Assembly: GCA_016180435.1 (NCBI GenBank)
Contig: JACPBG010000002.1
Coordinates: forward strand, 60,342-124,341
DNA length: 64,000 nt
Reading direction: 5' to 3'
Origin: Candidatus Sungiibacteriota bacterium
GTDB lineage: Bacteria > Patescibacteriota > Minisyncoccia > Sungbacterales > HO2-52-23
The notes below the pieces were generated by a model. It was not told the DNA's origin. It was given only the letters and a program-made list of their open reading frames with translations, and ran no database searches. This document shows, one piece after another, positions 11,224 to 63,941 of the stretch (within the stretch, counting starts at the first letter, position 1; each line of letters opens with the position of its first letter). A program made the translations under genes and the position numbers.

Positions 11224-11240
11224 GGCTCTTACGAGCCAGC

Positions 11241-11306
11241 ATCAAGAACTAAGATTTTAGAACTTAGCAAATTTTCTAAGTTCTAAGTTCTGGGTTCTAA
11301 GTTCTA
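11241..11306. repeat. R1 heptamer palindrome (rpmJ-rpsM spacer)
   Basis: aagaactaagattttagaacttag ... ctaagttctaagttctgggttctaagttct, then GTG. Confidence 0.85.
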
Positions 11307-11699: not shown

Positions 11700-11786
11700 A
11701 AAGCACTTAGAACTTAGAACCTAGAACTTAGTAAATCTGCTAAGATCTAAGTTCTTGAATGCTAAGTTCTATGTTGCGAAGCAACA
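11700..11786. repeat. R1 heptamer palindrome plus GCGAAGC mini-hairpin (rpsM-rpsK spacer)
   Basis: agcacttagaacttagaacctagaacttag ... ctaagatctaagttcttgaatgctaagttct-atgttGCGAAGCaacat. Confidence 0.9.
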
Positions 11787-12230
11787 TTGGGTAAAAAGCG
11801 TATCATAACTAAATCTACCGAGTCATCCGAATCGAAAAAATCCGATAGCCAGCCGCCAGCCGGAATTTCGGTAACGCGGCGTGGCATACTGCGCGGTTGC
11901 GCTTATATTCAGGCAACTTATAATAACACCATTATTACCATAACCGACGAAAAGGGCGGCGTGATAGCGTGGTCTTCGGCCGGGTCCGTTGGATTTTCGG
12001 GAACCAAGAAAGCCACTCCGTTTGCAGCAGCGCGAGTCGCGGAATTCCTTGCTGAAAAAATGCGTAAAGCCGGTATTCAGGAGCTTATGGTTTTTGTAAA
12101 AGGGGTTGGATCAGGGCGTGATTCGGCGATTCGTGCGCTTGCCAATCAGGGGTTTGCCATTTCGCGCATCAAAGATATTACCCCCATCCCGCATAACGGG
12201 CCGAGACCCAGGAAACCAAGAAGAGTATAA
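11787..12230 (+). CDS. rpsK: 30S ribosomal protein S11
   Basis: TTG start directly after the GCGAAGC hairpin. The sequence shows [24 protein letters not shown] and [17 protein letters not shown]. Confidence 0.9.
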
Positions 12231-12323
12231 AGCACTTAGAACTTAGAACCTAGAACTTAGAATTTATAATTAAAGTATTTACTAAGTTCTAAATACTAAG
12301 ATCTAAGTTCTTTTGCGAAGCAA
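12231..12323. repeat. R1 heptamer palindrome plus GCGAAGC mini-hairpin (rpsK-rpsD spacer)
   Basis: agcacttagaacttagaacctagaacttagaa ... ctaagttctaaatactaagatctaagttct-tttGCGAAGCaa-ATG. Confidence 0.9.
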
Positions 12324-14250: not shown

Positions 14251-14595
14251 ATGAGGAAGTTGAAAAAAGGGAGAAAATTTGGGAGAGAACGGGATCAAAG
14301 GAGGGCGTTACTTAAAAGTCTCGCCTCCTCATTTTTTATTGCGGGACGAATGAAAACAACGGAAGCCAAAGCCAAAGAACTCCGCCCGTATGTCGAGAAA
14401 TTCATTACCCGAGCCAAGGATCCGACACTCGCAAATCGAAGATTCATGCTGCGTTTTTTTTCGAGCGCAATTGTTGATAAAATTATTAAGCGTGGTGAGG
14501 AAATGCGTGAGAGAGCCGGAGGATATACCAGGGTTATTAAATTGGGACAGAGAAAACGAGATAGCGCGAGGATGGCGATATTGGAATTTGTTTAA
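14251..14595 (+). CDS. rplQ: 50S ribosomal protein L17
   Basis: MRKLKKGRKFGRERDQRRALLKSL and GGYTRVIKLGQRKRDSARMAILE. Confidence 0.92.
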   Translation: MRKLKKGRKFGRERDQRRALLKSLASSFFIAGRMKTTEAKAKELRPYVEKFITRAKDPTLANRRFMLRFFSSAIVDKIIKRGEEMRERAGGYTRVIKLGQRKRDSARMAILEFV

Positions 14596-14667
14596 AGAAC
14601 TTAGAACTTAGAACTTAGAACTTAGATATCTACTAAGTTTTAAATGCTAAGTTCTAAATGCTATGCG
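14596..14667. repeat. R1 heptamer palindrome (rplQ-rplM spacer)
   Basis: agaacttagaacttagaacttagaacttag ... ctaagttttaaatgctaagttctaaatgct, then a hairpin around the ATG. Confidence 0.9.
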
Positions 14668-38617: not shown

Positions 38618-38822
38618 GTTGTTTTCATCGCGGCGTGTCATTCAGGTCCTGGAGCGCCAGGGCTTTGTTTTTATTTCTCAACGGGGAAGTCACGCCAAAT
38701 ATCGCAAAACCGGTCCGCATACATTTACCGCGATTGTCCCTGTTGGGAAAAAGGAGATTCCACACGGAACTTTTCGTTCTATTGTACGCCAATCAGGATT
38801 ACAGGAGGAGAATTTTGAATAA
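38610..38822 (+). CDS. hicA: HicA mRNA-interferase toxin
   Basis: VIQVLERQGFVFISQRGSHAKYRK and KKEIPHGTFRSIVRQSGL. Confidence 0.8.
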   Translation: MPKLFSSRRVIQVLERQGFVFISQRGSHAKYRKTGPHTFTAIVPVGKKEIPHGTFRSIVRQSGLQEENFE

Positions 38823-40593
38823 AATTATAAGCAATCAAGAAACAAAAATCTGTCAAAATTGTAAAAACGAGTTCACCATTGAATCGGTTGACTTTGCATT
38901 CTACGAAAAAATCCGTGTGCCGCCGCCCACCTGGTGTCCGGAGTGTAGGATGGTGCGGAGGATGGTGTTTAGAAACGAGCGCAAACTTTTTCGCATAAAA
39001 AGCGCGAAATCCGGCAAAGAAATTTTATCGTTAAATCCGCCGGAAGCCGGTGTTGCGGTTTATGATGAAAAAGAATGGTGGTCGGATGATTGGGATGCCC
39101 GAGAATACGGGAGAGAATATGATTTCTCGCGGCCGTTTTTTGATCAGTTTTTCGAGTTGTCGAGGGTTGTTCCGCGTTACAGCCGCGATGTCCTGAATAT
39201 GGTCAATAGCGATTATTCCGCCAATGCCGCTGATCTAAAAAATTGTTACCTTTTGTTTAACTCAAATTACAGCGAGGATTCTTCATACGGAAACGCCGTG
39301 GATAAATCACATTTTTGTTTTGATAATTCGCATATTCAAAAATGTGAAAGATGTTACGAGTCATTTTGGCTGGCAAATTGTTACCAGACCCATTTTTCCT
39401 CCAAGTGCGAGGATTGCCAGAGTGTATGGTTCTCAAAAAATTTACGCGGATGCAGCAATTGTTTCGGATGCGTGAATCTGCGCGGGAAAAATTACTGCAT
39501 TTTCAACAAGCAATATTCCAAAGAAGATTATATCAAAAAGTTGGAATCGTTTTCTTTGCATACTTTTTCCGGAATCACGGCAGTAAAGAAAACGGCGCTG
39601 GATTTTTGGTTAAAATTTCCCAACAAATATATTGAGGGCGTTAAAAATCTAAATTCATCCGGGGAATATGTTACGCATTCCAAAAATGTGCATCATGGTT
39701 ATTTGGTGCGTGAAGGGGAAGATTTGCGCTATGTCCAGTATGTGCAGCTGCCGCCCTCTAAAGATCTGATGGATATAACTGTCGGAGGGAACGGCATGGA
39801 ATTATCATATGAAAATGCGACAAGCGGTTGGGGCAGGGTTTATAACTTGAAATTTTGTGCGGAATGCTGGCCGGAGGTTCGGGATATGGAATATTCAATG
39901 TTTTGTACCTCATCCTCCAATCTTTTCGGGTGCGTGGGTCTTCATAAAAAAGAATTTTGCATTTTAAATAGGCAATATACGAAAGAATCCTTTGACCAGC
40001 TCAAGATAAAGATTATTAAACATATGGATGAAATGCCATATGTTGATTCGCGCGGCCGGGCGTATAAATATGGGGAGTTTTTTCCGCCGGAATTGTCGCC
40101 GTTTGCCTATAATCAAACTATTGCCATTGAGCATTTTCCTTTAACCAAAGAAGAAGCCGAGAAAGCGGGGTACAGATGGCAGGAGCCGACAAGGCGCGAA
40201 TATGAAATAACCATGACTGTGGATGAAATTCCGGATTCGATCAGGGATATCCGCGAAGACATTCTAAAAGAAGTTATTCAATGCGCGAGTTGCAAACGGG
40301 CGTATCGCCTGATACGTTCCGAATTGGAATTTTTGAAGAAAGAAGGCATTCCGGCGCCCAGAGTTTGCATTGACTGCCGGCATGACGAGCGTATCAGCCA
40401 AAGAAACAAAGCAATTTTTTATTCGCGCCGATGCGCGTGCAGCGGCCAAAATTCCGGGAACGGGGCGTATAAAAATACTGCTACTCATTTCCATGGTCCA
40501 AATCAGTGCCTTAATGAATTTAAAACAAGTTATGCGCCGGACAGGCCGGAGATAGTGTATTGCGAAGCGTGCTACAATTCTGAAGTTGTATAA
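38815..40593 (+). CDS. large Cys-rich multi-zinc-ribbon protein, paralog P1 (592 aa)
   Basis: TTG at 38815 lies 4 nt after AGGAGGAG and overlaps the hicA stop by 8 nt. The N-terminus reads CQNC...FYEKIRVPPPTWCPECR, and the C-terminus has CASC...CIDCR and YCEACYNSEVV. Colinear with P2. Confidence 0.7.
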   Translation: MNKIISNQETKICQNCKNEFTIESVDFAFYEKIRVPPPTWCPECRMVRRMVFRNERKLFRIKSAKSGKEILSLNPPEAGVAVYDEKEWWSDDWDAREYGREYDFSRPFFDQFFELSRVVPRYSRDVLNMVNSDYSANAADLKNCYLLFNSNYSEDSSYGNAVDKSHFCFDNSHIQKCERCYESFWLANCYQTHFSSKCEDCQSVWFSKNLRGCSNCFGCVNLRGKNYCIFNKQYSKEDYIKKLESFSLHTFSGITAVKKTALDFWLKFPNKYIEGVKNLNSSGEYVTHSKNVHHGYLVREGEDLRYVQYVQLPPSKDLMDITVGGNGMELSYENATSGWGRVYNLKFCAECWPEVRDMEYSMFCTSSSNLFGCVGLHKKEFCILNRQYTKESFDQLKIKIIKHMDEMPYVDSRGRAYKYGEFFPPELSPFAYNQTIAIEHFPLTKEEAEKAGYRWQEPTRREYEITMTVDEIPDSIRDIREDILKEVIQCASCKRAYRLIRSELEFLKKEGIPAPRVCIDCRHDERISQRNKAIFYSRRCACSGQNSGNGAYKNTATHFHGPNQCLNEFKTSYAPDRPEIVYCEACYNSEVV

Positions 40594-41376: not shown

Positions 41377-43101
41377 ATGACACGACAATGCCAAAATTGT
41401 AACCAGAGCTTTGAAATTGCCCCCGAGGACCTTTCGTTTTACGACCGCATTCATGTCCCGCCGCCCACCTGGTGTCCAAGATGCCGGTTTCAGAGACGGC
41501 TCGCATTTTTTAATTTAACCGCGCTTTACAAGCGAAAATGCGATCTTTGCGGCGAGGAAAAAATTTCCATTTATCGTCCGGATGCGCCTTATAGAGTTTA
41601 TTGTCCGCCCTGCTGGTGGTCGGATAAGTGGGACCCTATGCAATATGGACGTGATTACGATTTTTCACGATCGTTTTTTGAGCAATACGCTGATCTTGTG
41701 CATGAGGTCCCGCACTGCGGCTTGGCAACTGACCATACGACGGTCATCAATTCAACCTATACCAATCACGCCGGAAATCTCAAAAATTGCTATTTGTTAT
41801 TCCAGGCGGATTTTAATGAGGACTGCGCGCACGGAGTATATGTTAAAAATTCAAGGTCCACGCTTGATTCCTCATTGATATTGAAATCCGAACTCTGCTA
41901 TGACTCCATGCACTCATATAAAAATAGCCATTGTGCGGGACTGCGAAGCCAGGTGACCAATTCGCTTGATTGTTACTTTCTCAAGGACTCATTTAATTGC
42001 CAGTATTGTTTTGCATCCGCCAATTTGCGAAATCGGAAGCATGTTATTTTTAATAAGCAATATTCTCCGGAAGATTATTTTAAGGAAATCGCGAGATGGG
42101 ATTTAGGTTCGTACGCCAAGTATCAAGAGATCAAATGTCTTGCCGAGGCGCACTGGAAAACTTTGCCGCCCAAGCCGCATATGGATGATTTTTCCGTAAA
42201 TTCATCGGGCAGCCATTACTTCCAGTGCAAAAACTGCAAGGATTGTTTTGAGGTGTGGGGCGAGGCCGAAGACAGTAAGTTTCTTTTTATGCTTTCCATT
42301 CCTCCGTTGAAAGATTGTTACGACGTATCAACCTGGGGCAATAATTTGCAGTTATCGTATGAATCATATGCAGTGGGCGAGCAGGGCGCCAATCTTAAAT
42401 TTTGTGCGGAGTCGGGTATCAATGCGCATTTACTGGAATATTGCAAGTTTACATTCGGAGGGGTGGAGGATTTCGGATGCGTTGGGTTGCGAAAGAAACA
42501 ATACTGTATCTTGAATAAACAATATACGAAAGAGGAGTATGAGAAAATGGTGCCAAAAATCAAGAAGCATATGGATGAAATGCCGTATATTTCAGAAATC
42601 CGAAATCCGAAGCACGAAATCCGAAAGATAATATATAAATACGGGGAATTTTTTCCGATAGAATTGAGTCCGTTTCCTTATAACGATACTGTGGCGCATA
42701 ATTTTTTCCCGCTTACCAAAGAAGATGCGTTGGCACGGGGATATAAATGGGGCGATAAAGAAAAAAGAGCTTATCCCATCACAATAAAGGCAAGCGATCT
42801 GCCGGATCATATCAAAGATGCGCCAGGTACCATTTTACAGGAAGTGATAGAATGTGTTGCATGCGGCCGGGGATTTAGAATCATTCCGATGGAGTTTAAA
42901 TTTTTACGAAAAATGAATTTGCCTTTGCCTCGGCAATGCCCGTTTTGCCGGATTGATGAGAAATTCACACTGTGGGTTAAAGATTTACGGGTTATCCCGC
43001 GGACGTGCGATAAGTGCGGCACATCGCTCACGACCAATTACACGCAAGAGGAAGCCCCTGTGATTTATTGCAAAGCATGCTATAATAATGAAGTAATATA
43101 A
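41377..43101 (+). CDS. large Cys-rich multi-zinc-ribbon protein, paralog P2 (574 aa)
   Basis: CQNC...FYDRIHVPPPTWCPRCR, a second knuckle CDLC...CPPC, central Cys-containing repeats, then C-terminal CVAC...CPFCR, CDKC and YCKACYNNEVI. About 33 Cys by manual count. Confidence 0.75.
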   Translation: MTRQCQNCNQSFEIAPEDLSFYDRIHVPPPTWCPRCRFQRRLAFFNLTALYKRKCDLCGEEKISIYRPDAPYRVYCPPCWWSDKWDPMQYGRDYDFSRSFFEQYADLVHEVPHCGLATDHTTVINSTYTNHAGNLKNCYLLFQADFNEDCAHGVYVKNSRSTLDSSLILKSELCYDSMHSYKNSHCAGLRSQVTNSLDCYFLKDSFNCQYCFASANLRNRKHVIFNKQYSPEDYFKEIARWDLGSYAKYQEIKCLAEAHWKTLPPKPHMDDFSVNSSGSHYFQCKNCKDCFEVWGEAEDSKFLFMLSIPPLKDCYDVSTWGNNLQLSYESYAVGEQGANLKFCAESGINAHLLEYCKFTFGGVEDFGCVGLRKKQYCILNKQYTKEEYEKMVPKIKKHMDEMPYISEIRNPKHEIRKIIYKYGEFFPIELSPFPYNDTVAHNFFPLTKEDALARGYKWGDKEKRAYPITIKASDLPDHIKDAPGTILQEVIECVACGRGFRIIPMEFKFLRKMNLPLPRQCPFCRIDEKFTLWVKDLRVIPRTCDKCGTSLTTNYTQEEAPVIYCKACYNNEVI

Positions 43102-43276: not shown

Positions 43277-43510
43277 ATGGCTAATGTAAAAATCTATACC
43301 ACTCCATCCTGCGTTTACTGCAAAATGGCCAAGGAGTTTTTCAAAAATAATAATGTCGCGTATGAGGAAAAAAACGTGGCCCAAGATGCGGCGGCGCGGG
43401 ATGAGATGATTCAAAAATCCGGCCAGCTCGGGGTACCGGTCATAGACATTGACGGGAAAATTATCGTGGGATTTGATCAGCCGGAGTTAAAAGAAGCGCT
43501 TCATATATGA
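43277..43510 (+). CDS. glutaredoxin/NrdH-like small redoxin
   Basis: 77 aa with IYTTPSCVYCKMAKEFF (CxxC) and GVPVIDIDG. Confidence 0.7.
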   Translation: MANVKIYTTPSCVYCKMAKEFFKNNNVAYEEKNVAQDAAARDEMIQKSGQLGVPVIDIDGKIIVGFDQPELKEALHI

Positions 43511-44058
43511 GCGGCAAGATATTTTGGTTTATTATAGCGATTGTTATGGCCGCGGGGGTTGTTTATTATATTTTAAGCTGGCGCGGAGCGGTTGATATGC
43601 CTGTCCCTCCGACGGCTAAGCCAATGCCGGAATTAATCTTTAGCGATTATGAGGGGAAGATTGTTAATTTATCCGAATTTCGAGGCCCGCTTCGCTCTCG
43701 CGAAAGCGAGGCGAGCAAGCCGTTGATAATAAACGTCTGGGCTTCATGGTGTTCATATTGTAAAAAAGAATTATCGGATTTTGCCGTAATCCAGCAGGAA
43801 TTCGGTGAAAAAATCACGGTGATTGCGATTGATCGCAGAGAAACGCCCGAGGCCGTTAAAAAGTATTCCGATGATCTGGGCGTGACCGGAAAAATTATTT
43901 TACTGCTTGATCCGGATGATTCTTTATATAAAGCCATCAGTGGTTTTTCCATGCCCGAAACCTTATTTGTGGACCGTGAAGGATCTATTCGTTATCATAA
44001 GCGCGGCCCCATGGAGTTAGAAGAAATTAGAAGGAGGGCGCAGAAAATTTTATTATAA
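43507..44058 (+). CDS. membrane-anchored TlpA/ResA-like thioredoxin-fold protein
   Basis: TM helix, then NVWASWCSYCKKE (WCxxC). It overlaps the upstream gene by ATGA and contains a 30-nt in-frame repeat insert. Confidence 0.75.
   Translation: MSGKIFWFIIAIVMAAGVVYYILSWRGAVDMPVPPTAKPMPELIFSDYEGKIVNLSEFRGPLRSRESEASKPLIINVWASWCSYCKKELSDFAVIQQEFGEKITVIAIDRRETPEAVKKYSDDLGVTGKIILLLDPDDSLYKAISGFSMPETLFVDREGSIRYHKRGPMELEEIRRRAQKILL
43686..43720. repeat. R2b 30-nt mini-palindrome, in-frame in the TlpA-like gene
   Basis: ccgcttcgctctcgc-gaaa-gcgaggcgagc, translated PLRSRESEAS. The same arms occur at 63738-63767. Confidence 0.8.
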
Positions 44059-47249: not shown

Positions 47250-47411
47250 AATTTTTAACTTGATAATTTCGATCAGCTTGCTGGTCGGTCATCATCGGTA
47301 GGTTCTCGACAGGCTCGAACAATATTTATAGTGAGCCGCGTCGAACTATTCTTCGAGCGAAGTCGAGAAGATACCTTTGATACCGACCTGCTTGCAGGTC
47401 GGAGGTTCATT
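47250..47411 (+). repeat. R5 long hairpin element, copy 1 (upstream of glgA)
   Basis: ttttaacttg.taatt.cga..agcttgctggtcggt...ggtaggttctcgac-aggctcgaacaatattt...ttcgagcgaagtcgagaagatacctttgataccgacctgcttgcaggtcggaggttcatt. Confidence 0.85.
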
Positions 47412-52465: not shown

Positions 52466-52553
52466 AAGCACTTAGAACTTAGAACTTAGAACTTAGAAAA
52501 ATAACTAAGATCTAAGTTCTTAATGCTAAGTTCTACGTTGCCGAGCAACGTTG
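52466..52553. repeat. R1 heptamer palindrome plus terminal mini-hairpin (upstream of trxB)
   Basis: agcacttagaacttagaacttagaacttagaa ... ctaagatctaagttcttaatgctaagttct-acgttgccgagcaacgt. Confidence 0.9.
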
Positions 52554-52637
52554 TTGTATGACGTTATCATCATCGGCGGCCCGCCCCGATTTCTGTCGGG
52601 GCGAGGCTCGCCCACAACCTTATGTTATATGATGTAA
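52554..52637 (+). pseudogene. relic 5' end of trxB (LYDVIIIGG...) disrupted by a GC-rich element
   Basis: TTG-TTG-tat-gac-gtt-atc-atc-atc-ggc-ggc runs into the R2-like ccgccccgatttctgtcggggcgaggctcgccc and stops at 52635-37. It is out of frame with the real trxB start at 52622. Confidence 0.6.
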
Positions 52638-54015: not shown

Positions 54016-55410
54016 ATGTCAACATTCTTCGAAAACACTAAAAAATTTATTGAAGACGCCGTGCGTATCGCCTATATTCCGGGCGATATTTTAGGACGTT
54101 TGGAAAAACCGGATAAAGTATTAGAATTTGAAATTGCGGTTGGTGATAACCCCGTTAGAGACCCGATGCCTATGGCATCGGCAGACGCCGAAGGGCGTCT
54201 TGTCTCTAACGGGGCGAGAAAATTTCAAGCATGGCGTGTCCAACATAATAACATCCTTGGTCCTTACAAAGGTGGAATCCGCTATCATCCGGATTCAAAT
54301 TTGGATGAGGTAAAAGCGCTGGCCTCTTTGATGACTTTGAAAACCTCCCTTGCCGGGATTCTTTTTGGCGGAGCTAAAGGCGCGGTAAGAGTTGATCCGC
54401 GTAAATTATCCCTGCAGGAATTGGAAGAATTATCGCGCATGTACGTCCGTGCAATTTGGCAAGAAATCGGGCCGGAAAAAGATGTTCCGGCGCCGGATGT
54501 CGGCACTACCCCGCAAATTATGGATTGGATGACGGACGAATATTCGAAACTCATCGGAAAATTGAGTCCGGCCGCCCAGCAGAGTGGGGCGAGCCTCGCC
54601 CAAAATGGGCGGGCGGGATTCACTGGAAAATCTATAGAAAAAGGCGGTTCCCGCGGCCGCGATATTGCCACCGGTTTTGGCGGGTATGTAATTTTGAGAG
54701 AATTTTTAAATCTAAGTTCTAAGTTCTTAGTTCTAAGTTCTGAATCGCAACTAGTGGTTGCGATTCAAGGTTTCGGTAATGTCGGCGCAAATATCGCTAA
54801 AATCTTATATGAAAAAGGATTTAAAATCGTGGCCATTTCCGATTCCAAGGGGGCGCTTTATGAGGAAGATGGCATTGATATTAAAAAAGTTTTGGATGTA
54901 AAAGAAAAAACCGGCATTATAGATCGCAACAAGTGCTATGCGGTTTCCGAGGAGCGGCTGGCATCCGGTACTCCCTGTCGCGAATTTACCAACGATGATT
55001 TATTGCAAATGCCGGTGGATATTTTGATTCCGGCTGCGCTTGAAAATGTTATCAATGAAGCGAACGCGGAAAAAATTAGAGCTAAAGTAATTTTGGAAAT
55101 GGCCAATGGTCCGGTTACTCCCGAAGCTGAAAAAATATTCACTAAGCGAGGAATTGAGGTGCTACCTGATATTTTAGCCAATAGCGGGGGAGTGGTTGGA
55201 TCGTATTTTGAATGGGTGCAAAATCGTAAAGGAGAGCAATGGAGCGAGGAGGAGGTGCTTGCGAAAATTGATGAAAAATTGACCGAGGCGTTTCAGAGTG
55301 TACAAAAAATTAAGGAGGAATGCAATGTTTCGTGGCGTATGGCATCATACGTACGGGCGATTAAGAGGGTTGCGGAAGGGAATAAAAATCCGCCTTTTGG
55401 GGCGGTATAA
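54016..55410 (+). CDS. gdhA: Glu/Leu/Phe/Val-family glutamate dehydrogenase
   Basis: GPYKGGIRYHP, GGAKGAV, QGFGNVG and ANGPVTPEA. It contains three repeat-derived in-frame inserts. Confidence 0.9.
   Translation: MSTFFENTKKFIEDAVRIAYIPGDILGRLEKPDKVLEFEIAVGDNPVRDPMPMASADAEGRLVSNGARKFQAWRVQHNNILGPYKGGIRYHPDSNLDEVKALASLMTLKTSLAGILFGGAKGAVRVDPRKLSLQELEELSRMYVRAIWQEIGPEKDVPAPDVGTTPQIMDWMTDEYSKLIGKLSPAAQQSGASLAQNGRAGFTGKSIEKGGSRGRDIATGFGGYVILREFLNLSSKFLVLSSESQLVVAIQGFGNVGANIAKILYEKGFKIVAISDSKGALYEEDGIDIKKVLDVKEKTGIIDRNKCYAVSEERLASGTPCREFTNDDLLQMPVDILIPAALENVINEANAEKIRAKVILEMANGPVTPEAEKIFTKRGIEVLPDILANSGGVVGSYFEWVQNRKGEQWSEEEVLAKIDEKLTEAFQSVQKIKEECNVSWRMASYVRAIKRVAEGNKNPPFGAV
54150..54214. repeat. 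R7-type element in-frame inside gdhA
   Basis: CCCCGTTAGAGAC-ccgatgcctatggcatcgg-cagacgccgaagggcgtct-TGTCTCTAACGGGG. Confidence 0.8.
54571..54621. repeat. R2 GC-rich element in-frame inside gdhA
   Basis: gccgcccagcagagtggggcgagcctcgcccaaaatgggcgggcgggattc. Compare 508-557. Confidence 0.85.
54709..54766. repeat. R1 right arm plus terminal hairpin, in-frame inside gdhA
   Basis: aatctaagttctaagttcttagttctaagttct-GAATCGCAAC-tagt-GGTTGCGATTC. Confidence 0.8.
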
Positions 55411-57785: not shown

Positions 57786-59060
57786 ATGCGTCAGTCCATA
57801 TTATTTGGAAAAACGCTCCGTAAGGGGCCCAAAGACGAGATTTCAAAAAATGCCAACCTTTTGGTTCGCGGCGGTTTTGTGGCCAAAGAAATTGCCGGAA
57901 TATATTCTTTTTTACCGCTAGGTCTCCGGGTGCTTGATAAGATAGCCAGGATTATACGCGGAGAAATGAATGATGTTTTGGGAGCACAGGAGATTCTGAT
58001 GCCCGCACTCCACCCGATCGAGAATTACCAAAAAACCGGACGCGAAAAAATCGATGTGCTTTTTCACACGGAACTTGCATCAGGCGGCAAGTTGGTGCTT
58101 GGCCAAAGCCATGAGGAGATCGTGGTGCCCCTGGCAAAGCATTTTATTTCATCCTACCGCGATCTGCCGCTTGGGCTTTATCAAATTCAGACCAAATTTC
58201 GCAATGAACTTCGCGCTAAATCAGGCATGCTCCGCGGCCGCGAATTTATGATGAAAGATCTTTATTCATTTCATGCGGATGAAAATGATTTTGAAAAATA
58301 TTATGAGCGGGCGAAGATCGCATATAAAGATATTTTTGAAAAAGCCGGTTTAGGCGGACAAACCTATCTTACATTTGCCTCCGGCGGGACATTTTCCAAG
58401 TACTCCCATGAATTTCAGACCATAACCGAGGCCGGAGAAGACACCATTTATCTTTGTAAAGAATGTAAAATTGCGATAAATGACGAAATTATCGGGGAAC
58501 AGAAAAATTGCCCGCAATGCAATGCGCCTATAGCCAAATTATTGCAAGAAAAAGCAATCGAGGTCGGGAATATTTTTCCCTTAAAAACCAGATTTTCGGA
58601 CGCCTTTGGCTTGTCTTATATCGACAAATCAGGCCAGACGCATCCTGTGGTAATGGGATGCTACGGGATAGGATTGGGACGCGTTTTGGGCGCGATTGTA
58701 GAGGTACATAACGATAAAAACGGCATTATTTGGCCGGAAAGTGTGGCGCCGTATAAAGTGCATCTGATAGAACTTAGAACTAAGAATTTAGAACTTAGTG
58801 ATGATCCGGTACGCGGGGCAGCCGAAAAGTTATATAACCATCTGCTTGCTAAAGGAATTGAAGTGTTATACGATGACCGCGACGATAAAACAGCCGGAGA
58901 GAAATTCACGGATGCGGATTTGATAGGAATCCCGTGGAGAGTGGTTATTTCGGAGAAAACCGTTCAGCGAAATGCAATAGAAGTTAAAAAGCGTGATTCA
59001 CCCGGGAGTGAGTTGATGTCTGTGGTAAGTTTTCTCCAGAATTTAAAAGTAAAAATGTAA
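57786..59060 (+). CDS. proS: proline--tRNA ligase (no INS editing domain)
   Basis: Class II motifs RNELRAKSGMLRGREFMMKD and GCYGIGLGR, plus an anticodon-binding C-terminus. It contains a heptamer-repeat insert. Confidence 0.9.
   Translation: MRQSILFGKTLRKGPKDEISKNANLLVRGGFVAKEIAGIYSFLPLGLRVLDKIARIIRGEMNDVLGAQEILMPALHPIENYQKTGREKIDVLFHTELASGGKLVLGQSHEEIVVPLAKHFISSYRDLPLGLYQIQTKFRNELRAKSGMLRGREFMMKDLYSFHADENDFEKYYERAKIAYKDIFEKAGLGGQTYLTFASGGTFSKYSHEFQTITEAGEDTIYLCKECKIAINDEIIGEQKNCPQCNAPIAKLLQEKAIEVGNIFPLKTRFSDAFGLSYIDKSGQTHPVVMGCYGIGLGRVLGAIVEVHNDKNGIIWPESVAPYKVHLIELRTKNLELSDDPVRGAAEKLYNHLLAKGIEVLYDDRDDKTAGEKFTDADLIGIPWRVVISEKTVQRNAIEVKKRDSPGSELMSVVSFLQNLKVKM
58768..58800. repeat. R1 left arm in-frame inside proS
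   Basis: atagaacttagaactaagaatttagaacttag, translated IELRTKNLELS. Confidence 0.8.
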
Positions 59061-63606: not shown

Positions 63607-63676
63607 AACACAAAACCCGTTAAGATAAATTCCTAATTATCTAATTGTCTAATTTCTAATAAAATGCCAAATTATA

Positions 63677-63847
63677 AAATTTTAACTTGCTAATTCCGAC
63701 TAGCTTGCTGGTTGGTTACAATTGGTAGGTTCTCGACCCGCTTCGCTCTCGCTCCAGCGAGGCGAGCAGGCTCGAACAATATTTTTCGAGCGAAGTCGAG
63801 AAGATACCTTTGATGATACCGACCTGCTTGCAGGTCGGAGGTTCATT
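63677..63847 (+). repeat. R5 long hairpin element, copy 2, carrying a nested R2b insert, itself nested in a (CTAATTT)-type hairpin
   Basis: Same sequence as 47250-47411, plus 30 extra nt (63738-63767). It is flanked by cctaattatctaattgtctaatttctaataaaat and attttattagatgaattagaaattagg. Confidence 0.85.
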
Positions 63848-63941
63848 TTAGGCCTTAGAAATTTTATTAGATGAATTAGAAATTAGGTGAATTTTGATTT
63901 ATTGGTTTTATAAGTATTTTATGTATTGTGTATATTACATA

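Follow-up and report, generated by a model that had tools for sequence, protein, structure and literature searches.

Small palindromic repeats are found in several bacterial groups and in organelles; their movement is mostly unsolved, and each family normally has a narrow host range. The small dispersed repeats (SDR) of heterocyst-forming cyanobacteria, for instance, are reportedly shorter than 30 nt, palindromic, nested in other repeats and occasionally located in genes; their mobility is said to have been inferred from filled and empty sites, and they are reportedly restricted to related cyanobacteria. Here we describe a 30-nt hairpin-forming sequence (the 30-mer) that occurs twice in a 64,000-nt stretch (the window) of contig JACPBG010000002.1 from a Candidatus Sungiibacteriota bacterium (assembly GCA_016180435.1, positions 60,342 to 124,341), once in frame in a gene of the TlpA family of thiol-disulfide oxidoreductases (tlpA) and once inside a larger palindromic repeat (R5b). 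A preliminary description of this DNA, made from the window alone, had proposed that the 30-mer is inserted and mobile. From its empty sites and its spread among genomes, we consider it likely that the 30-mer is a non-autonomous, hairpin-forming mini insertion element that is moved in trans.

The 30-mer behaves like REP sequences, Rickettsia palindromic elements (RPE), the cyanobacterial SDR and the GC clusters of yeast mitochondria, but it lacks defining features of each of them. It resembles SDR, compared by description only, in size and nesting, and differs from them in sequence family and hosts. REPs are dispersed, non-coding and thought to be moved in trans (PMC3184786). Like the 30-mer, which has 30 nt with 11 bp and two bulged T, the REP/REPIN-RAYT sequences of Enterobacteria, Pseudomonas and Stenotrophomonas ('SMAG') are GC-rich imperfect palindromes, of 20-40 nt, and the GTAG at the 5' foot of REP is analogous to, but not the same as, the CCC at the foot of the 30-mer. 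However, REPs lie outside genes, reach hundreds of copies per genome, are limited to one genus or species, are commonly paired as inverted doublets and are found on both sides of a RAYT gene, whereas the 30-mer has at most five exact copies per representative genome, stands singly, lies in genes in a quarter of cases and crosses phyla. Within 8 kb of 161 copies of the 30-mer there was no RAYT (Y1) gene except one IS200-type gene with different ends. RPE are palindromic selfish repeats that, like the 30-mer, sit in frame in intact and often essential genes. As far as Ogata et al. 2000 is reported in PMC3184786, which cites it, RPE have a length of about 100-150 bp, occur in Rickettsia only and add peptide segments at the protein surface that are tolerated there. 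The 30-mer, in contrast, has 30 nt and is hosted by bacteria of the candidate phyla radiation (CPR), Elusimicrobia and other phyla.

The mitochondrial GC clusters of yeast (e.g. GC42) are likewise short GC-rich hairpins, set in a genome that is poorer in GC; they fuse with other palindromes or nest in them, and their mechanism is unsolved. They have conserved stems, varying loops and a putative AG target duplication, and are mostly intergenic within one organelle lineage (PMC4478555). The 30-mer shares the pattern of stem and loop, but it lacks the duplication, frequently lies within genes and is shared by several bacterial phyla. With the IS200/IS605 elements the 30-mer has in common the insertion 3' of a short specific sequence, the absence of target duplication and a hairpin with extrahelical bases; unlike them, it is a single hairpin instead of distinct left and right subterminal hairpins, and shows no orientation bias. 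Miniature inverted-repeat transposable elements (about 50-500 bp) are also non-autonomous with inverted-repeat ends, but the 30-mer has no target duplication and only roughly one third to one tenth of their usual size. Full-text searches of the literature for the arm sequences matched no paper, and topic searches yielded analogues only; thus, in the literature searched, we found no earlier description of the 30-mer, by sequence or by topic. In Rfam 15, the window and ten other loci had no match at the gathering score except tRNAs, and the R5b region gave nothing relevant at E <= 10.

In the window, the pattern CCGCTTCGCTCTCGC-N4-GCGAGGCGAGC has exactly two matches, both on the + strand: copy 1 at 43687-43716 with the loop GAAA, and copy 2 at 63738-63767 with the loop TCCA, where the preliminary description had placed the same arms. 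By chance none would be expected. There were no further matches in the window at up to three mismatches and none in 100 shuffles, and matching with up to seven errors revealed no decayed copies above the shuffled background. Each copy folds as GCT(T)CGC(T)CTCGC-loop-GCGAG-GCG-AGC, i.e. 11 bp with two bulged T, and the copy in tlpA together with its flanks forms a hairpin of -23 kcal/mol. Outside the 30-mer the two sites share one 5' C and a 3' A-N-GC, and the remaining flanks are unrelated. The loops have none of their four positions in common, so that neither copy was made directly from the other. Gene conversion between the two loci, which had already been considered improbable when the repeat was noticed, is excluded by these loops together with the unrelated flanks. 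The unit is CCGCTTCGCTCTCGC, a loop of 3-4 nt and GCGAGGCGAGC, usually with one additional C before it.

Copy 1 occupies codons 61-70 of the TlpA-family gene at 43507-44058 (+ strand), the frame of which is intact. The 183-residue product, which retains the CxxC motif (C82 and C85), is identical to a protein recorded from a Candidatus Sungbacteria metagenome-assembled genome (MAG). As had been described, the 30-mer adds exactly ten codons (PLRSRESEAS) just upstream of the active site: it is aligned with the codons, lies between the invariant G60 and the usual K/R-P, and ends 12 residues ahead of C82-S-Y-C85. None of the 119 other listed homologues, including relatives at 75-77% identity, has extra residues at this position. 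At the DNA level, three relatives have the empty site ...GAATTTCGCGG(C/T)|AAACC..., i.e. GG(C/T)|AAACC, while the window has the filled site ...GAATTTCGAGGC[30 nt]AAGCC.... An AlphaFold2 model of the protein had a mean predicted local distance difference test score (pLDDT) of 85 overall with a thioredoxin fold; block 61-70 had a mean pLDDT of 54 and was modelled as coil, with no secondary structure, directly ahead of strand 73-78. The insert is thus predicted to be a ten-residue disordered loop just ahead of the strand that leads to the CxxC site. The insert-bearing TlpA was also called in independent SRA assemblies, which shows that it is not an assembly artefact. Two close TlpA relatives (P0005 and P0006; loci L162-L164) have WSPYY in place of the family's WCPYC, with neither active-site cysteine left, and the protein nevertheless occurs on many contigs.

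Copy 2 lies in R5b (63677-63847, + strand), a long-palindrome repeat of about 170 nt. A second copy of this repeat, R5a (47250-47411, + strand), has 89% identity to R5b outside three indels, and here the site of the 30-mer is empty: the junction 47310|47311 reads TTCTCGAC|AGGCTCG, and in R5b the 30-mer is a clean 30-nt indel between these same sequences. The other two indels are 24 nt at the hairpin apex (R5a only) and 3 nt (R5b only), so that, contrary to the preliminary description, the two copies differ in length by more than the 30-mer. Each R5 copy folds as one long imperfect hairpin (z about -6.3; -6.4 for R5b), and the 30-mer forms a side branch of it in R5b. R5b is in turn enclosed by an outer AT-rich inverted repeat of CTAATTN heptamers (left arm 63626-63665, right arm 63861-63886). 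Three levels of nesting were thus recovered as first described, in the order AT-rich heptamer inverted repeat, R5b palindrome and 30-mer, and the whole 286-nt region (63620-63905) has a DNA fold z of -8.1. R5a is itself an insertion, because the pgi-glgA spacer, which has 178 nt in the window, has only 28 nt in the syntenic relatives L162 and L164. Among the fetched loci outside the window, R5 was matched only through its embedded 30-mer. The extra 24 nt of R5a (47326-47349, ATAGTGAGCCGCGTCGAACTATTC) lie exactly at the apex of the long hairpin and are unique in the window. Independent short-read assemblies of the same organism (Logan contigs L166 and L168-L170) end within or beside R5a and just ahead of R5b, which fits R5 being multi-copy in the genome.

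We scanned one genome per species for exact arms with a loop of 3-8 nt and obtained 52 loci; the 36 species-representative assemblies that contain them are without exception MAGs. A scan of metagenomes added 109 further stretches with exact arms. After removal of duplicates there were 118 distinct contexts, or 93 once contexts with related flanks were collapsed; hence the 30-mer is not unique to the two window loci. The flanks of different contexts are unrelated to each other. The hosts belong mostly to CPR/Patescibacteria classes. By record title, the others are Elusimicrobia, Planctomycetota, Raymondbacteria, Latescibacterota, Bacteroidota and 'Gammaproteobacteria'. The Elusimicrobia host was verified by the ribosomal protein S2 beside the copy on a 170-kb contig, the nearest relatives of which are Elusimicrobia and Endomicrobia proteins. 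The GC content of the host loci is 29-59% (median 43%). In some genomes the 30-mer is part of larger, genome-specific repeats that have themselves been multiplied, with five copies each in one Planctomycetota MAG and one Raymondbacteria MAG and three copies each in an Elusimicrobia and a Levybacteria MAG. Such a distribution over phyla implies that the element travels horizontally or that the activity which mobilises it is common to many bacteria.

The 5' CCC was not demanded by the search pattern, and each of its bases is C in 93-98% of contexts. Of the 118 contexts, 112 have C at position -3; ahead of the CCC, position -4 is G or A in 105 and position -5 is G in 68. The 3' flank of the 30-mer has only a weak bias. 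The loop exists in 24 variants that form two main classes, TTCA/TCCA/TCA and GAAG/GAAA/GAAT/GAA. We then joined the flanks of each copy without the 30-mer and searched for the resulting empty sites in all fetched DNA. Such sites were recovered in other repeats and in other genomes. At ...GGTCCGC|CTTTGGCGGAAAA, L033 and L085 carry the 30-mer while L150, L155 and L084 lack it; at ...AGAGGC|GAGGCTCG, L006 carries it while L090 and L148 lack it. Additional filled/empty pairs are L047/L085, L090/L041, L091/L116 and R5b/R5a, so that other genomes hold at least five pairs besides tlpA and R5b/R5a. In most pairs exactly the 30-nt unit was added right after G-R-C (mostly GGC); the inexact pairs are L047/L085 and two in AT-rich heptamer repeats.

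Flanking direct repeats were no longer than in the permuted control, and no target-site duplication was found by this measure. The end of the left flank does match the element's own 3' end, with C as the last base in 88 of the 93 collapsed contexts and GC as the last two in 54 of them. There is thus no target duplication except a 1-nt C that can be assigned to neither side. The only case seen with a long flanking duplication is a variant with two mismatches, CCCGCTCCGCTCTCGCTTGAGCGAGGCGAGA, in L043 (7450-7510), where a 15-nt direct repeat, GAACCCAATAACTCA, stands on either side.

The target sites also have structure. The two flanks of a copy are mutually complementary above permuted pairs (p = 4e-5), and the empty sites, when reconstructed, fold more stably than G-R-C sites taken as controls (-8.1 versus -5.8 kcal/mol). 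The junction falls in a hairpin loop in 28% of cases, versus 19% of control G-R-C sites (p = 0.04). The copy in an RNase HII-like open reading frame (ORF) sits within a CCCGC-GAA-GCGGG mini-hairpin, and several copies are found at the apex of terminator-like hairpins, e.g. TTTTCCGCC...GGCGGAAAA. The copies themselves are not arranged in inverted doublets, with one match per locus. The 30-mer slightly favours other repeats and the apices or loops of short palindromes as targets, which explains its nesting inside R5b.

Many copies are inside genes. The arms, as read from the sequence, have no stop codon in any of the six frames, and with 30 nt and a 4-nt loop a copy that lands in a gene can survive. 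Of the 101 copies of 30 nt, 25 are internal to ORFs of at least 250 aa, versus 2 of 17 copies of 29 nt. In ten intact hosts Pfam domain matches were found on both sides of the insert: PheT, SecA (two positions), topoisomerase I (TopA), RecG, MetRS, PolA, GyrA, FtsZ and Mfd. The SMC-like and RNase HII-like hosts were recognised by sequence motifs only. The copies in genes use several reading frames and both strands relative to the gene. Other inserts were seen in or near the same hosts. The GyrA gene that hosts the 30-mer in L117 (444-4130) also has an intein (Pfam Intein_splicing). The SMC-like ORF of L022 has an extra 11 codons made by a mini-hairpin on the reverse strand, CCCGCTTCGAC-TTGC-GTCGAGCGAGGCG, and a 32-nt GC-rich mini-hairpin family, CCCGCCTCGCC-GAAACGGCGACG-CGAGGCGGG, recurs beside or around the 30-mer in several loci.

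These data show that many genomes have repeatedly gained a defined 30-nt unit, with precise ends and at sites unrelated to each other. The unit is inserted after G-R-C, without duplication and in either orientation, and is tolerated in frame in essential genes. The earlier proposal of an inserted and mobile 30-mer thus gained support from the empty sites of tlpA and R5a, from the at least five further pairs and from the 118 contexts. We propose that a sequence- and structure-specific enzyme, encoded elsewhere, would act in trans on the folded single-stranded nucleic acid, as is suggested by invariant ends and fixed arms with a varying loop. The element may spread horizontally between hosts and is probably selfish rather than functional.

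Several observations weigh against this proposal. No mobiliser was found: clustering all against all of 1495 ORFs within 8 kb of the 161 copies returned housekeeping families only and no recurrent transposase, and a Pfam scan of 37 of the larger ORFs of the window, ten of which had no Pfam match at all, detected no transposase, integrase, Y1/HUH or reverse-transcriptase family, consistent with the transposase-free window of the preliminary description. Nor was a vector found: among IMG/VR viral contigs there was no exact-arm match, a phage collection had no match, and a plasmid collection gave no full-length match but only a partial one of chance level in one Ralstonia replicon. The copy number is low, with no more than five exact copies per representative genome and two in these 64 kb, and so few copies are not what is usually seen in a repeat that is proliferating actively. 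There is no orientation bias, either by GC skew (18 versus 19 loci with strong skew, local GC skew being a mere proxy for replication direction) or by ORF strand. Because the scans demanded exact arms, the apparent constraint on the arms is biased, and only the 5' C's provide an unbiased measure of conservation. Finally, movement itself is read from the comparison of sequences.

What, then, could have distributed the 30-mer? A Y1/HUH single-strand transposase (IS200/IS605 TnpA or a REP-associated RAYT) might recognise the imperfect hairpin together with its 5' CCC, which is unpaired, and at the replication fork cleave single-stranded DNA and join it again. The imperfect hairpin with its two bulged T and conserved unpaired 5' trinucleotide, the insertion 3' of G-R-C, the absence of target duplication and the favoured hairpin loops all speak for such an enzyme, as does the Y1_Tnp gene that lies about 110 nt from the copy in L139. 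On the other hand, the absence of strand bias argues against the best-known route of single-strand hairpin transposition, and the 30-mer is a single hairpin that lacks distinct left and right ends and forms no inverted doublets. The L139 gene was the one convincing Y1_Tnp gene that tblastn with an IS608 TnpA query found in the fetched loci and the window, and the failure to find a second is a weak negative. It belongs to an IS200-type element (L139, 8990-9530) that is about 60-110 nt from a composite repeat holding the 30-mer. Its conserved end hairpins (…CCCCGTCCTTTCAAGGACGGGG… and …TCTCCGTCCTTTAGGACGGAGA…) are common to its homologues in L171-L177 and unrelated to the 30-mer, and the seven loci of the four homologues examined have no 30-mer. 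We therefore rejected the L139 gene as the specific mobiliser; it belongs to an ordinary IS200-type element that is close to the 30-mer by chance. The IS200/IS605 or HUH lead in the preliminary description is favoured by the insertion 3' of a motif, the lack of duplication and the bulged hairpin, and disfavoured by the missing strand bias and the different ends of the only Y1 gene found, and we regard a Y1/HUH transposase as a rather unlikely agent. Template switching guided by microhomology would need no dedicated enzyme: a nascent strand stalled at a structured site would copy the 30-mer elsewhere and return. The lack of target duplication, the junction identity of 1-2 nt (C in 88 and GC in 54 of the 93), the structured targets and the absence of a linked transposase agree with copy choice, which, however, predicts ragged ends instead of identical boundaries in 93 unrelated contexts. 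An identity of 1-2 nt is also a scant basis for repeated identical events, and arms that are fixed across phyla around a varying loop are left unexplained, so we consider template switching improbable.

Conservation of the arms and the 5' CCC around a variable loop, and the several copies at the apex of terminator-like hairpins, might also be expected of a functional motif, such as a protein-binding DNA or RNA stem-loop, a terminator or a stability module, kept by selection and spread by recombination. Yet a quarter of the 30-nt copies are in coding sequence, in several frames and on both strands, neither their position relative to genes nor their neighbours are consistent, close relatives lack the insert at the same sites and Rfam has no match; we find a functional motif very unlikely. 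A narrower alternative concerns the tlpA insert, which might escape translation if the message lost the hairpin or the ribosome bypassed it, as happens with the GC-rich 'byp' inserts of a yeast mitochondrion. The tlpA insert is an analogue of mobile GC-rich inserts in coding sequence, and it is a stable hairpin in the message (the -23 kcal/mol given above). But 25 of the 27 copies in long ORFs have 30 nt, and the arms are free of stops in every frame. This is a prediction of selection on translated inserts, and bypassing would not need it. The insert is moreover modelled as an ordinary surface loop, and we hold an untranslated insert to be highly improbable. Least probable of all is an artefact of assembly, chimera formation or adaptors. 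Short-read contigs do often break near these repeats; the insert-bearing TlpA, however, recurs in independent SRA assemblies, there are more than 90 contexts from many projects and assemblers, and the loops vary while copies are in frame in conserved genes. The artefact reading is effectively refuted already. Of the explanations weighed here, the hairpin element moved in trans by a specific enzyme remains the one that we favour.

The window contains other repeats and genes of note. A GC-rich composite hairpin repeat of about 52 nt is found at 507-558 and 54570-54621 with 92% identity between the sites, in an MnmA-like gene (15-947) and in a glutamate dehydrogenase-like gene (54016-55410, between two Pfam domains), and both ORFs remain open. 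Its first hairpin, CGCCCCGC-AGA-GCGGGGCGAGC, has the 3' GGCGAGC in common with the 30-mer, which suggests that the two may belong to a wider family. Towards its 5' end the glutamate dehydrogenase-like gene also has a nested double palindrome, and TCTAAGT heptamers follow one another in frame within the gene (54150-54215 and 54700-54745); with three repeat-derived inserts in total it is still intact. AT-rich heptamer hairpins (AAGAACTTAGAAC... facing ...GTTCTAAGTTCT), of the same type of structure as that enclosing R5b, occur at 116-188, 760-821, 11237-11305, 11701-11756, 12230-12311, 14595-14662, 52466-52534 and 58768-58804, and are intergenic where read. A GC-rich hairpin at 52575-52615 (CGCCCCGATTTCTGTCGGGGCG then AGGCTCGCC) lies just upstream of the likely start of a thioredoxin-reductase-like gene. 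Two paralogous cysteine-rich ORFs at 38635-40593 (652 aa) and 41377-43101 (574 aa) have internal repeats and no Pfam match at E <= 1e-5.

What is unusual about the 30-mer is that it is so small, that different phyla share exactly the same sequence, that its copies are few and that these often reside in essential genes. Because its filled and empty sites are clean, its target (after G-R-C) is defined and duplication is absent, the question of its movement becomes testable. It is possible, although we put this forward only tentatively, that few known mobile DNA units are as small as the 30-mer. An enzyme would define the ends of this 30-nt hairpin, which would enter structured single-stranded DNA (or move via RNA) at specific sites after G-R-C, pass horizontally between CPR bacteria and unrelated phyla that live alongside them, and continually supply essential proteins of reduced genomes with new surface loops. 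Because no transposase family is linked to the element, its mobiliser would then be a new kind of enzyme or a housekeeping one. The element accounts for at least some of the short insertions rich in Ala, Arg, Ser and Glu in conserved CPR proteins (SecA, PolA, GyrA, FtsZ, TlpA and others) and for assembly breaks there, and its distribution could mark the exchange of DNA between CPR bacteria and their neighbours.

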